DNA of 64,000 bases from Trichodelitschia bisporula (taxonomy: Eukaryota): NCBI GenBank assembly GCA_010356995.1, contig ML996693.1:1178001-1242000 (forward strand). The letters run 5' to 3'. Numbering within the stretch: position 1 is the stretch's first letter; every line of letters starts with the position of its first letter. The notes beneath the pieces are model-generated. The model made no database searches. It saw nothing but the letters and a program-made list of their open reading frames with translations, and was not told the origin of the DNA. The position numbers and the translations under genes are program-made. Of the stretch, positions 18,391 to 59,018 are shown piece by piece.

Positions 18391-18575
18391 NNNNNNNNNN
18401 NNNNNNNNNNNNNNNNNNNNNNNNNNNNNNNNNNNNNNNNNNNNNNNNNNNNNNNNNNNNNNNNNNNNNNNNNNNNNNNNNNNNNNNNNNNNNNNNNNNN
18501 NNNNNNNNNNNNNNNNNNNNNNNNNNNNNNNNNNNNNNNNNNNNNNNNNNNNNNNNNNNNNNNNNNNNNNNNNNN
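18391..18575. other. Assembly gap (185 N)
   Basis: Run of N; hides the 5' end of the next gene. Confidence 1.
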
Positions 18576-54303: not shown

Positions 54304-55284
54304 ATGTCTGCCATCAAGCTCAACACCGGCGCCAGCCTGCCCGCCATCGGCCTGGGCACCTGGCAAGATCCCGACGCGCAGCAAGATGCCGTAGCCGCGG
54401 CTCTCAAGGCGGGCTACCGCCACATCGACACAGCAACCGTGTACGGCACCGAGAAGGCCGTTGGCGAGGGCCTCAAGAAGTCTGGCGTGCCACGCAGCGA
54501 GGTCTTCATCACAACGAAGCTGTGGAACAACAAGCACCACCCCAATGACGTCGAGAAGGCGCTCGACCAGTCGCTGGCCGACCTCGGGACCGACTATGTC
54601 GACCTCTGGTTGATTCACTGGCCCGTTGCATTTGGTCGCGGAGAGGACAAGTTCCCCAAGACCAGTGACGGCAAGCCGATTACTGAGAACATTGACTTCG
54701 TCGATACCTACAAGGCTATGGAGAAGTGCTTCAAGGCTGGCAAGGCCAAGGCTATTGGTGTCTCCAACTTCAGTCATGCCGAGATGGAGCGTCTACTGAA
54801 GGAGACGAGCGTGGTATGTTGCTATTACTATCATTGTTATTGAACGCCGCTAACAAACCAGGTCCCCGCCGTGCACCAGATTGAGCGCCATCCGTGGTTG
54901 CAGCAAAACAAGTTTGTCAAGTGGCTCCACGAGAAGGACATCGCCGTCGTCGCGTACAGCCCGTTCGGCAACGCCAACCCCATCTACGAGGGCACCAAGG
55001 AGCTTGGGCTGCTGATCCAAGATCCGACGCTCGTGGAGATTGGCAAGAAGTATGGCAAGTCGGGCGCGCAGACGGCGCTGGCGTGGGGTATTTCGACGGG
55101 GTGTGCGGTGATTCCCAAGAGCAAGTCCCAAGAACGTGTCAAGCAGAACCTGGAGGGTGACTTCAAGCTGTCCGAGGAAGACGTCAAGAAGATTGAGGCG
55201 ATTGACAAGAAGGCGCGGTTTAACGACTCGTCGGCGGACTTCGGGTACGACTTTTTCATGGATTTGGATGGAAAGAAGAAGTAG
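54304..55284 (+). CDS. Aldo-keto reductase (310 aa)
   Basis: Exons 54304-54813, 54862-55284. Catalytic tetrad contexts HIDTA, VYGTE, TTKLW, LIHWP; IGVSNF; IPKS. TATAAG at about 54161. Confidence 0.94.
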
Positions 55285-55766
55285 GGCGGTAGATGGTGAG
55301 CTAGCTTCACCCAAAACGAACTGTATGAACTGTAGTTTGCATGCGTATGGCGCTCAGAAATCAAGTTGTTTTCTAGGAAGTGAGCATGACCGATGAGCGT
55401 GATGCCGTTCTTGTGTTAACGGAGCAGCGGGAAGCAGAAAGCTAGTCACTGCTTCAGCTTTCGAAGCTGTACACAATGCAGTCCTGTGCACATGTGCTAC
55501 TTGTTAATGGCGGGCCACCTTCGGGCAGAACTGGTGGAGCTCGGGGATTGGGATGAAGCTCGGATCACTTCCGTGTCTTTTTTTCGGAGCGGAAAAACTT
55601 TACACCGAAAAAGGTTAGGTATTTCTTTCGCGACGCATCCCCGAAACCGAAACTTCTTCAACCACCAGCTTGCAGCTTTGCAGCTCCCACCCCACAGCCA
55701 GCGCTGGCCGCTGGCGACTGATTGTATCTGTCGCATCGAGGTAAGCAGATCGACTCTTCCTTTCAC

Positions 55767-55849
55767 TACAATGATGAGGAGCAAAAACACGAACAATCCA
55801 ACTCCTATCAATCGTGAGGATCATAAGCTCTACAATCTCTCTGAACTGT
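55767..55849 (+). ncRNA. Box C/D snoRNA guiding the 25S A-loop region (G2917-equivalent; SNORD69-like)
   Basis: Box C ATGATGA 55771-55777; guide GAACAATCCAAC 55791-55802 complementary to 25S GUUGGAUUGUUC; D' CCTA 55804-55807; C' GTGAGGA; box D CTGA 55841-55844. Confidence 0.78.
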
Positions 55850-56014
55850 CACGGCCCTCGATTTGTTCGTCACCCGCTGTGTTCCCCAGCTAACAGTGTA
55901 CAGAAATTTCTCACTGTAGCACTGCGACGTGCCGACAAGACGCTGACCGCAGCGCCCTGCTGCAACTGCGCTCCCACAATCTCAAAAGGTACACATTGCA
56001 ATTTCTTTTCTCTC

Positions 56015-56105
56015 TGGGATGATGATAATGTGACATCGGAAAGGCATTCCTCGATCTGAATTCAATGTGGATCACGTCTTTAAAGTTTCAGCCTTGTCTG
56101 ACCTC
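56015..56105 (+). ncRNA. snR41: Box C/D snoRNA, snR41-like (18S Gm1126 guide) with a second 18S guide
   Basis: Box C 56019-56025; D' guide AGGCATTCCTCG 56042-56053 with CTGA 56056-56059; D guide AAGTTTCAGCCTTG 56083-56096 complementary to 18S CAAGGCUGAAACUU; box D 56098-56101. Confidence 0.85.
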
Positions 56106-56182
56106 TGTCATTCTGCTTATCTTTGCACGTTCTTTGCGACCGTAGCTAACCACAAGCAGGTACATTTGCTCCTCTCCATCTC

Positions 56183-56315
56183 TCCAATATGACGAAACTT
56201 GACGAACGGGCGGTCATACTGCGTTCTCCTCGGCCGCGTCCGCCAAACAGGACGTACAATCCTGGGGCGTGGGCTGGGGAAGAACTTGCTGAGAACTCGT
56301 CAGCTGAACATTGGA
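56183..56315 (+). ncRNA. snR70: Box C/D snoRNA snR70 (18S Cm1639 guide)
   Basis: Terminal stem TCCAAT/ATTGGA; box C ATGACGA 56189-56195; guide ACGGGCGGT 56206-56214 complementary to 18S ACCGCCCGU, D' CATA places the +5 rule on the expected C; box D 56304-56307; lies between the snR41 and snR51 homologues. Confidence 0.82.
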
Positions 56316-56392
56316 CACACCGCCATGGTGCTTGAACTATTGTGGGCAAAGCTGACCGGTTCAGGTACATGTGCTCGTCTTTTTCTTGGTTC

Positions 56393-56558
56393 CCATCAAT
56401 ATGATGATCAACATTCACACTGTGTGATTGGACTGGCGTGTAAACGACGTCAGCTCCAAATGATCTTACAACACTGAAAATTCTGATTTAATGAGGTATG
56501 TTCGACCCCCAAGTCCAGGCCCGGGAATGACGCTAACTGTCGCAGCCTGATTTGATGG
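56393..56558 (+). ncRNA. snR51: Box C/D snoRNA snR51 (18S Am100, 25S Um2729) interrupted by a 50-nt intron (56496-56545)
   Basis: Terminal stem CCATCAA/TTGATGG; box C 56401-56407; D' guide ATTCACACTG 56413-56422 with GTGA; D guide CTGATTTAATGAG 56483-56495, then intron, then C and box D CTGA 56547-56550. Confidence 0.87.
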
Positions 56559-56686
56559 CTTTTGCCTTTTGCTGCTTCAATGTGTGGAGGCTAGCCGCTG
56601 ACTATGTCGCATTCTAGGCAAGTTCGTCAGGTTGTGGGAGTTGTGCTTGAGAGCCTGTGGTAAGCCGCCCCTCTCCTTTTCCCCTC

Positions 56687-56769
56687 TAGCCTGATGAGAT
56701 ACACGAGACGCTGCGTTCTTCCTGAGTGCGCCGATGAAGAGACAACTCACCTTGGAGACCTGAATGCTA
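56687..56769 (+). ncRNA. Box C/D snoRNA with 5.8S A43 guide and 25S guide (SNORD55/U55-like site)
   Basis: Stem TAGC/GCTA; TGATGA 56692-56697; guide GCTGCGTTCTTC 56710-56721 (5.8S GAAGAACGCAGC) with CTGA 56722-56725; guide CACCTTGGAGAC 56748-56759 (25S GUCUCCAAGGUG) with CTGA 56760-56763. Confidence 0.85.
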
Positions 56770-56912
56770 CTGCTCCACTTGCTTTAAAAATCCGGTCGAG
56801 GCCCCGCTGACTGGTGACAGGACTCTGAAAATCGGCTCGGCCGATGTAGATAGCAATGTATACCCATGCAACCCGATTCTCTGAATGTGCGTGCTCCGAC
56901 CATTAGTGACTA

Positions 56913-58088
56913 CTATATCCAGTAATTATCCCAATTGAACTTGAGTGCCTCGTTTCCCCACGAGCACCAGCCGGCGACGAGATGGCGTGCATAAATTTCC
57001 CATGCATTATACCAGATGGGGCCCTCGCGCTCCGCGTACCCTGGCAGCAGTGGCTCGAGCAGCTCCTTGAGGCAGGGCTTGCGCGAGTGCAGGTCCGGCA
57101 CACCAGCAATGACCCTTCGCGCCGGCTCCTCGCATGCTGGCGCGCCCTTGCGCCCGACAAGCAGCATCTCCCACGGGCATCTCCACGCGCCGTCGAGCGG
57201 CGTGACAGGCTCACCAGCTTCGGTTATCTTCACCCAAATCCACTCCTCGACCAATGTCACGCCCCAGGCATCGAATATGCCGTTCCGGCCGAGCACGGAG
57301 TTACGCACAGCAGCCTTGTTCGTGATCCACACCGCCACTATCCCGTCTTTGACAGTAGACCATTGATAGGCCTGCGCCAGACCGACGAGTTCAGCGGTAA
57401 GGACATCAAGGGTGCGGGTTGTAGGGTAGGCGCTGCTGCGACCAGCGGACTTATTCGGCCAGGGCGGATCGAGGAGGAAGAGGCTGACTGATGCGCGATT
57501 GAGGTGCGGTGGATGTGATGGGATCGTGTGTAGCGTATGGGTTGTGAAGGGGGGAAGATGGAAGTTTATATGCTGGGGTCGCCACGTCGGGGTTGGGATG
57601 GAGATGTGCAGGGTGAGGGATTGCGGAGCGCTGGTCGCGTTGCTGTATGAGCCGGGGTAGTTGGAGCAGAAGAATGGAGGCGCGGGAGGCGCAGTGATGG
57701 TGTATGTACGCGCTGGGACCGGGTTAATGGCACCGAACAGGAGGGCCGGGAGGCTGGCTTCTGTCTCGGTATCGGCTGGCTGGTTTGTCCGGCGGGGATG
57801 GCACCATGGCCCCGTGTGTTGGGAGCTGATGTCAGGCAGGGCCGCGCGGATTAGCGCGATGTAGATGTCCCGCTTTGGGCCGGAGTTTTGTGATGAGAGG
57901 CGCTCGCGCGCTGCTTCGCTTTTGGGTTCGGGAGTGGTGTAGGGTGCGGTTGGCGGGGGGCGGGAGAGGAGGTGCCGGGTTGCGGGGGCGTAGGGTGTGC
58001 CTTGTGCGTGGGCGATTGATGTCGGGATGTCGATGAGGGTGATTGTGTGGGAGGGGTTTTGGTAGAGGATTGGCGGAGGGAGAGGCAT
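56913..58088 (-). CDS. MT-A70 family N6-adenine methyltransferase, METTL4-like (391 aa)
   Basis: Single exon from ATG 58088; LLDPPWPNKS catalytic motif, VAVWITNK, EEWIWVKIT..GEPV, VPDLHSRKP, EIYARHL..GWCSWGNEALKF. Confidence 0.9.
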   Translation of the reverse strand: MPLPPPILYQNPSHTITLIDIPTSIAHAQGTPYAPATRHLLSRPPPTAPYTTPEPKSEAARERLSSQNSGPKRDIYIALIRAALPDISSQHTGPWCHPRRTNQPADTETEASLPALLFGAINPVPARTYTITAPPAPPFFCSNYPGSYSNATSAPQSLTLHISIPTPTWRPQHINFHLPPFTTHTLHTIPSHPPHLNRASVSLFLLDPPWPNKSAGRSSAYPTTRTLDVLTAELVGLAQAYQWSTVKDGIVAVWITNKAAVRNSVLGRNGIFDAWGVTLVEEWIWVKITEAGEPVTPLDGAWRCPWEMLLVGRKGAPACEEPARRVIAGVPDLHSRKPCLKELLEPLLPGYAEREGPIWYNAWEIYARHLVAGWCSWGNEALKFNWDNYWI

Positions 58089-59018
58089 GGTGATATTGAA
58101 GGGGAGGTAGGGAGAGGGTAGGTTTTGGGAGGTTGAGTTTACGATCTGGATGGTGTGGGAGAATTGCGTTTGGTGATTGTGAGTGTTGAGTGTCGTGGAG
58201 GGGTGTGGTTTGGGGATCTGAGGTGGTTGTCTGCTGGTGACGCAGATGCGGATTGAGGCTCGATCCCGGGTTTCCCAATTCGGCTGCATGCTAATTTGGA
58301 TCGAGATAGAGAGCCCGGACTAGCAGAAAGAAGCTTTGCCATTCACATGACGGACATTTTACTCCGTCAGTGTGGAGTATTAGCTTGTCCGATGCTACCC
58401 GCCGTCAGGTGCCGAGGGGAAAGGTGAGGGGATCGCTGGTGGGGATTTACGGGCCGGGACGAAAAGGCGAAGCAGAGAAGCCGAAAGCGGAGAACAATAA
58501 AGAAGAAAGCGAAGATGGATGAATCTCGTGAACGATACTTTATCAGGCAAACCGTCGTTGGTGTTGAGCATCCGGCTAGATCATTGTTCACTAGATCATC
58601 GTCGTTGTGTAGAAGATCTCATGCCTATCTCCGTCTCACGTTCTCCATCTCCGTTCTCGGCAACCCGGCCGGCCTTTTCCAAGGGGTGAAGTCACTCGTC
58701 ACTCCGCCCCCCCCGGCTCCCCCGACCCCCCGAGGTCAGTGCGCTGACGCAACCGTTCTCAACTCTTTTTCGCCATCCATCCGCAGCGCCAACCCGCTGC
58801 CAACCCTTCTCCACACGCTGCTTCTCCACTCCACCCAAACCTAGCGACTACATACCAAACATACTTCATGGCCAGCCCCAGTATCTCATTGCTGGCTTCC
58901 TTCGCGCTGAGGTAGTCTCCCCTGCGCCTCTTATCCGAGCGAGCGCGGGATGCAAGACCGCCTCGCAGGGCATGAGCAGCACCTCCAGCCTCCGCCCTCC
59001 TCGACTCCTTCTCCTCAA

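Follow-up and report, generated by a model that had tools for sequence, protein, structure and literature searches.

The locus described here lies in a stretch of 64,000 nucleotides (nt) of the Trichodelitschia bisporula genome (assembly GCA_010356995.1, contig ML996693.1, positions 1,178,001 to 1,242,000 of the forward strand), which is called the window below and is numbered from its first letter. Positions 55741–56820 of the plus strand, on which all introns and exons given below are located, constitute the non-coding host gene of the conserved fungal box C/D small nucleolar RNA (snoRNA) cluster III, with the order snR41, a snoRNA at the snR70 position, and snR51. The host gene has the form typical for filamentous ascomycetes, in which two more snoRNA introns flank the triplet. 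In the central part of the gene, the three snoRNAs reside in three introns between which no exon sequence is left, the acceptor of one intron being followed directly by the donor of the next.

The central introns are bordered by exon 2 (55904–55988, 85 nt), which ends in ...CAAAAG and whose limits are set by joints in RNA-derived contigs, and by exon 3 (56618–56659, 42 nt), which begins with GCAAGT and is included in the RNA contigs. Intron I (55989–56159, 171 nt) has the donor GTACAC, a branch motif CTAAC at 56146 and the acceptor CAG, and harbours the homologue of snR41. Intron II (56160–56364, 205 nt) starts with the donor GTACAT, has its branch motif CTGAC at 56352 and also ends in CAG; a C/D snoRNA is present inside. 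Intron III (56365–56617, 253 nt) uses the same donor GTACAT, a branch motif CTGAC at 56598 and the acceptor TAG, and contains a snR51-like snoRNA, which is itself interrupted by the 50-nt intron B (56496–56545, GTATGT...CTAAC...CAG). The boundaries between introns I and II (junction 1, 56159/56160) and between introns II and III (junction 2, 56364/56365) are thus zero-length exons, both reading CAG/GTACAT (a slash marks the splice boundary here and below).

In the sequence, junction 1 appears as GCTAACCACAAGCAG/GTACAT at 56145–56165 and junction 2 as GCTGACCGGTTCAG/GTACAT at 56351–56370, where no second AG is found from the branch to the acceptor. The third string, GCTGAC...TCTAG/GCAAGT, is located at 56597–56623, at the end of intron III. 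All three strings had been pointed out in a first-pass annotation of this DNA, and they are present exactly as it had described them. Its remark that the two GT junctions share the same donor GTACAT is also borne out. These are the sole two places in the window that match the pattern CTRAC-N(2-25)-AG/GTACAT. The two strings CTAAC..CAG/GTACAT (56146–56165) and CTGAC..CAG/GTACAT (56352–56370) are spaced by 205 nt. For the same pattern, 100 first-order Markov simulations put the chance expectation at 0.03 matches per window, both strands taken together, and none of them gave more than 1. The motifs are short, and this is the single argument for the idea that splice-like motifs without any role in splicing have come together here by chance. 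The idea is refuted by the two sites found against 0.03 expected, by RNA joints at the predicted positions and by the conservation of the motifs in 46 related lineages, and its probability is negligible.

The RNA joints come from assembled contigs of two runs (X1 and X2) of a single sample and study, which were compared with positions 55400–57100 of the window. Their identity to the window is 99% or more in every case. The label of the two runs as RNA is a guess; they have been treated as RNA-derived because five deletions bounded by GT..AG fall at predicted introns. Positions 55571–55684, 55742–55855 and 56711–56767 are uncovered in the contigs and hence uninformative. Assembled contigs lose rare variants, and lariats and RNA ends are invisible in them.

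The prominent joint, 55988^56618 (a joint is written as the two positions that it brings together), has all 629 nt of the three central introns removed and is present at a depth of 29.9 in X1 and 213 in X2. Its contig continues to 56645, within exon 3. The omitted stretch has GT..AG ends, and the product contains zero letters from junction 1 or junction 2. Because the 629-nt joint retains no junction letter, the exons at both junctions are truly of zero length. A second joint, 55988^56160, has only intron I (171 nt) removed while intron II is still attached. It was seen in X1 only, in one contig with a depth of 5.0, which is built of 23 unique, 7 shared and 23 unique letters, the size of a complete bubble at k=31. 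In unspliced contigs both junctions are crossed without interruption. The remaining joints remove the 163 nt of the upstream intron A (55740^55904, X1), the 50 nt of intron B (56495^56546, both runs) and the 161 nt of the downstream intron C (56659^56821, both runs). For junction 1, a 3-nt exon CAG had earlier been offered as an alternative to the zero-length exon. This candidate was rejected, since the stretches that the RNA joints omit are bounded by GT..AG and measure precisely 171 and 629 nt.

The joint 55988^56618, as the dominant spliced contig, could also be produced if positions 55989–56617 were one 629-nt intron that is excised once, with the snoRNAs being freed afterwards by an RNase III-type endonuclease and exonucleases. 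In favour of such a pathway, Luo et al. (2013, PLoS One 8:e58547, PMC3596301) state that the baker's yeast orthologues of these snoRNAs are part of a primary transcript that is not spliced. However, the intermediate 55988^56160 exists, and each snoRNA has its own acceptor and its own branch motif, 44–48 nt downstream, which are conserved in relatives. Furthermore, the two spacers between the snoRNAs were folded in search of a processing stem, and they are not structured beyond shuffled sequences (z −1.17 and −1.13), with no obvious capped stem. Excision as one intron is therefore quite improbable.

The relatives were collected by scanning metagenome contigs for the last 19 bases, at the 3' end, of the snR41 homologue. 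Out of 113 loci found in this way, the 68 with at least 650 nt downstream were scored and the 45 shorter ones were left out. Clustering at 95% identity reduced the 68 loci to 53 clusters including the window, and dropping 6 of the 52 non-window clusters, which on inspection were not cluster III, resulted in 46 lineages. The dropped clusters comprise three with a plant-like snoRNA arrangement and no splice signals (L002, L060 and L067), two that apparently lie within coding sequence (L008 and L045) and one of unclear type (L065).

At junction 1, the arrangement of branch, AG and GTA (AG/GTA) is shared by all 46 lineages, 45 of which were recognized by pattern and the last, L069, by eye (branch GCTTAC). 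Of the 45 recognized by pattern, 40 have a branch motif that begins 49–61 nt past box D. At junction 2, AG/GT is found in 36 lineages, AG/GC in 1 and AG/GT with the variant branch TACTAAG in 2, while 5 lineages retain an exon of about 42–60 nt and 2 are ambiguous. The nested intron B is also absent from 4 of the 5 lineages that keep the exon (L011, L028, L048 and L063) and from both ambiguous ones, and these lineages look like an outgroup state. At both junctions, GT and A at position +3 are essentially fixed, whereas the letters from branch to AG and positions +4 to +6 vary freely. Such conservation would not be imposed by the acceptor alone, and it argues for use of the donors at 56160 and 56365.

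Among 85 donors at the zero-length junctions (ratchet donors), only 24 have G at position +5; for the donor of the nested intron the count is 32 of 34 (Fisher p = 1.4e-11, for lineages that are not independent of one another). Animal ratchet donors, by comparison, are close to the consensus. It is possible that the ratchet donors of the window and its relatives lean on the acceptor AG at positions −2 and −1 for pairing with U1, in place of the G at +5.

Taken with the RNA joints, these features make it likely, at a good level of confidence, that the transcript is spliced recursively through the two abutting GT junctions, with one snoRNA lariat released per step. The proposal of the first-pass annotation, namely lost exons, abutting introns and stepwise splicing with a rebuilt donor, thereby gains support for the two GT junctions from 55988^56618, from 55988^56160 in X1, from the AG/GTA that all 46 lineages have at junction 1 and from AG/GT in 36–39 of 46 at junction 2; for its third, GC-type site it does not. 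Two exons would formerly have stood between the three central introns, and with their loss the acceptor AG came to abut the next donor GT at 56159/56160 and 56364/56365. In a first step, exon 2 would be ligated from its end at 55988 to 56160, which would free the snR41 lariat and rebuild a 5' splice site AAG/GTACAT. In a second step, this rebuilt site at 56160 would pair with the branch at 56352 and the middle snoRNA would be released. The site rebuilt at 56365 would then pair with the branch at 56598, and exon 2 would finally be joined to 56618. Exon 2 would in this way be kept as the 5' exon through each recursive step, and each lariat would carry one snoRNA 44–48 nt upstream of its branch motif. 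The anatomy, the final product, the first intermediate and the conserved splice signals at both junctions are observed, while the use of the donors at 56160 and 56365 and the 5'-to-3' order are inferred.

A different explanation of the same contigs is that one donor, at 55989, is combined with three alternative acceptors (56159, 56364 and 56617), that the internal GTs are unused and that the partly spliced RNAs are dead ends. This explanation was named by Luo et al. (PMC3596301), who could not exclude a single donor. It also predicts the contigs with 55988^56160 and 55988^56618, and lariats that start at 56160 or 56365 lack direct evidence here. Against it stand the GTA at junction 1 in 46 of 46 lineages and the AG/GT at junction 2 in 36 of 46, both amid variable neighbours, as a donor that is never used would not stay conserved. 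In addition, transcripts spliced to the first acceptor would never free the two downstream snoRNAs, and spliceosome profiling in Schizosaccharomyces pombe has found ends at such a zero-length exon in a gene that hosts snoRNAs. We therefore consider the use of a single donor unlikely.

Some points weigh against recursive splicing as set out above. The first-pass annotation had proposed to look for intermediates that join 55988 to 56160 and to 56365. The former was recovered, but as one contig of low depth, in X1 and not in X2, both of which come from a single sample; the latter was not seen. Neither 55988^56365 nor a product with intron II alone removed (56159^56365) is present in the contigs of X1 and X2, in which rare forms are lost. 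The letters GGTACA are common to both sides of the joint 55988^56160, and template switching by the reverse transcriptase is conceivable. The use of the internal donors has not been observed directly, as the contigs carry no lariats. To this may be added that the RNA label of both runs is a guess and that the related lineages are statistically non-independent.

The GC-type site at the end of intron III had been proposed as a third ratchet, with GCAAGT as the abutting donor at 56618. This is unsupported in the present organism, since its RNA includes positions 56618–56659 as an exon, which ends at GTAAGC, a consensus donor that starts at 56660. In the X1 and X2 contigs, none of the joints takes 56618 as donor. 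The zero-length exon at 56618 has accordingly been rejected for this organism, where it could at most be a minor alternative. Among 36 related lineages, 18 have GT directly behind the first AG at the intron III acceptor under a strict rule, and the count rises to about 24 of 36 by eye if a tandem AG a few bases downstream is permitted, whereas the window has AG/GC and a 42-nt exon included in its RNA. A consensus donor is always found 40–60 nt beyond the third junction in the 36 lineages. The arrangement resembles a 'recursive exon'.

Each of the five intron-like units of the host gene contains one snoRNA, and the distance from box D to the CTRAC branch motif is 44–48 nt in all five. The snoRNA of intron I is matched by the Rfam family Afu_455 at 56015–56103 with 63.2 bits (cut-off 48); the same positions match Rfam snR41 with 26.7 bits, under its cut-off of 50. 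The Afu_455 match is the snR41 homologue and the first member of the triplet. The snoRNA of intron II, delimited by eye at 56184–56314, has a terminal stem CCAAT/ATTGG (here the slash separates the two strands), box C ATGACGA at 56189–56195 and box D at 56304–56307. It folds better than shuffled sequences (z −2.6) and carries the guide-like motif GAACGGGCGG, which is common to 39 of 46 related lineages. This snoRNA, like that of the upstream intron A, has no Rfam match even at E values up to 10, and it is named snR70 by its position only.

The snoRNA of intron III was first indicated by a sub-threshold snR51/snR67-like Rfam match at 56397–56503, which reaches 31.8 bits for snR51 (cut-off 44). 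It is composed of positions 56393–56495 and 56546–56558, with box C at 56401–56407, box D at 56547–56550 and the terminal stem CCATCAA/TTGATGG. Its 5' guide TTCACACTGT, and its 3' guide with box D (TTTAATGAG/CCTGA after removal of intron B), match six lineages in which the snoRNA is uninterrupted. On these sequence features the third snoRNA of the triplet can be taken as the snR51 homologue in spite of its Rfam score below the cut-off. Positions 56470–56486 (ACAACACTGAAAATTCTGA) align to the 3' guide and box D of Rfam snR67 with 21.8 bits (cut-off 55), and the snR51-like RNA may hold a third guide-like element there.

Intron B interrupts the snR51-like snoRNA at a point flanked by the 3' guide (..TTTAATGAG; ..CTGATTTAATGAG) on one side and by box D (CCTGA) on the other. 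The terminal stem, formed by CCATCAA (56393–56399) and TTGATGG (56552–56558), encloses the snoRNA only when the box D located 3' of intron B is used. The stem is supported by covariation, as 26 of 37 lineages (36 relatives and the window) keep at least 5 Watson-Crick pairs in 22 different helices, compared with 17.5% of mismatched lineage pairs that reach at least 5 pairs. The six related lineages without intron B have a contiguous TTTAATGAGCCTGA, which is the exact splice product of the window. Intron B must consequently be removed to form the snR51-like snoRNA, and intron III spans 56365–56617 with a nested intron. The first-pass annotation had overlooked intron B at 56496–56545; without intron B, intron III cannot be drawn correctly. 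A reading of the pair as a stwintron, in which an inner intron splits a splice signal of the outer one, was rejected, since intron B lies far from both the donor (56365) and the branch (56598) of intron III and is a nested intron.

In both runs, intron B is already gone from contigs that keep introns II and III. The X2 contig that starts at 56040 and lacks intron B also keeps the junction between introns I and II intact, and in the sole unspliced contigs seen intron B is already absent.

Variation of the nested intron was observed among the relatives. In two lineages, L020 and L021, about 490–560 nt past the snR41 box D, it is positioned 3 nt further upstream (TTTAAT/GTAAG...AG/GAGCCTGA), whereas the site in other lineages is TTTAATGAG/GT...AG/CCTGA; the spliced product is identical, and the two lineages appear to represent intron sliding. 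In two other lineages, L033 and L078, the snoRNA seems to end at an internal CTGA. Downstream of this snR51-like 5' half, the guide ..TTTAATG.. belongs to another snoRNA, that of the following intron, as though snR51 had divided its guides between two snoRNAs.

The triplet is flanked by two more introns with one snoRNA each. Intron A (55741–55903, 163 nt) has the donor GTAAGC, a branch motif CTAAC at 55890 and the acceptor CAG, and the joint in an X1 contig omits its 163 nt with GT..AG ends. Its C/D snoRNA, placed by eye at about 55766–55850, has box C ATGATGA at 55771–55777 and box D CTGA at 55841–55844; it would be U45, by the position given in Luo et al. (PMC3596301) only. Intron C (56660–56820, 161 nt) has the donor GTAAGC, a branch motif CTGAC at 56807 and the acceptor CAG. 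It contains the snoRNA Afu_294 at 56687–56766 (49.1 bits, cut-off 43), where SNORD39/55 matches with E=0.004. The longest open reading frame (ORF) with an ATG in the spliced host RNA is 16 amino acids long, the transcript ends being assumed.

On one side of the host gene, an ORF that resembles aldo-keto reductases ends at 55284, and on the other side an ORF of the minus strand occupies 56913–58289. An RNA contig with the last exon of the host gene extends for more than 3 kb over the latter ORF. Either the 3' end of the host gene overlaps the convergent gene or the assembler has fused two overlapping transcripts. Elsewhere in the window, a run of 185 Ns at 18391–18575 marks an assembly gap or a masked stretch.

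The abutting snoRNA introns, whose novelty the first-pass annotation had left to be checked, have been published for the same cluster and clade. Luo et al. (PMC3596301) described cluster III without its two interior exons, as 'intron-intron-intron', in all the Euascomycetes they examined, and reported that the cluster has gained introns for U45 and U55 as well as intron B, which lies within snR51 and holds no snoRNA. Among their 42 expressed sequence tags (ESTs), intron I alone was missing from 18, introns I and II from 14 and all three introns from 10; the ESTs they report include none that lacks intron II or III while keeping I, which fits 5'-to-3' stepwise splicing. The term recursive splicing was used by Donovan et al. 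(2016, PMC5033589), who described a zero-size exon between snR41 and snR70 in Debaryomyces hansenii and also treated cluster II of the Candida parapsilosis group; the same authors refer to processing by endonuclease and exonucleases for cluster I of baker's yeast. Chen et al. (2018, bioRxiv 10.1101/226894) detected spliceosome-bound ends at the zero-length exon of the S. pombe snoRNA host SPNCRNA.445, and in a protein-coding gene of Cryptococcus such an exon was likewise mapped by spliceosome profiling (Burke et al., bioRxiv 10.1101/224170). The snR51 homologue of Neurospora has been called exon-encoded by Liu et al. (2009, PMC2780460).

The locus agrees with the Euascomycete cluster III of Luo et al. 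in the order of the snoRNAs, in the loss of the two interior exons, in the extra flanking introns (A and C), in the presence of intron B in snR51 between guide and box D and, judging by the one X1 contig, in RNA that lacks intron I while keeping II and III. Compared with the description given in their text, nothing essential differs, and the window represents one more species. The finding is real, ordinary for the clade and already known. Small additions to that work are the RNA contigs of this organism, the counts from 46 metagenomic lineages, the weak +5 position and the AG/GT tendency of the third junction. Neither the weak +5 position of ratchet donors nor AG/GT at the third junction is mentioned in the searched text of the literature, figures and supplements apart, and some of these additions may already be drawn in the figures or supplements of Luo et al.

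With the zero-length exons of yeasts (D. hansenii, the C. parapsilosis group and S. pombe) the locus shares a 3' splice site that abuts a 5' splice site in a non-coding host, and short introns with one snoRNA each. However, in the yeast cases as described each cluster contains just one exon of zero length (or of 1 nt), while the window has two consecutive ones, both of which would regenerate AG/GTACAT. Moreover, the S. pombe SPNCRNA.445 is known from direct spliceosome profiling, whereas the window is known from contigs and sequence. As at the ratchet points of Drosophila and vertebrates (Duff 2015; Sibley 2015), AG/GT would rebuild a 5' splice site, and it leaves no trace in the mature RNA. 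The introns of the window are 171–253 nt long and in this they are unlike the recursive introns of animals. The latter extend over tens of kilobases, and their piecewise removal is thought to be the benefit of recursion. In the window, the likely purpose of recursion is to place one snoRNA in each lariat at a fixed distance from the branch point. In baker's yeast, snR41, snR70 and snR51 are made from an intron-less polycistronic transcript, which is processed by an RNase III-type endonuclease and exonucleases. The cluster of the window shares these three snoRNAs, their order and their placement on one transcript, but, unlike in baker's yeast, its snoRNAs each possess full splice signals and the spacers are devoid of significant structure.

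A more speculative and rather doubtful idea is that recursion serves as a timer for a snoRNA that itself needs splicing, with the third junction as an optional ratchet or 'recursive exon'. The weak ratchet donors would slow the 5'-to-3' removal of introns I and II and delay the lariat of intron III. The delay would give intron B time to leave, which would bring the 18S guide beside box D. This idea is consistent with the observations to the extent that the sole unspliced contigs already lack intron B.

The remaining value of the locus is small and concerns its annotation, the strength of its donors, its third junction and the fact that the nested intron leaves early. An annotation made by gene callers will show a single 629-nt intron here and miss two internal junctions as well as the intron inside a snoRNA. 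The weak donors, the semi-conserved third junction and the early removal of intron B matter only if they are shown to set the order of splicing. As both the principle and the cluster are already in print (Luo et al. 2013; Donovan et al. 2016; Chen et al. 2018), the locus adds an instance and no new concept. It is nevertheless a clean natural example of extreme exon shrinkage in a non-coding host gene, in which the spliceosome can pass through abutting introns by regeneration of the donor, and each lariat yields one snoRNA suitably spaced from the branch point.

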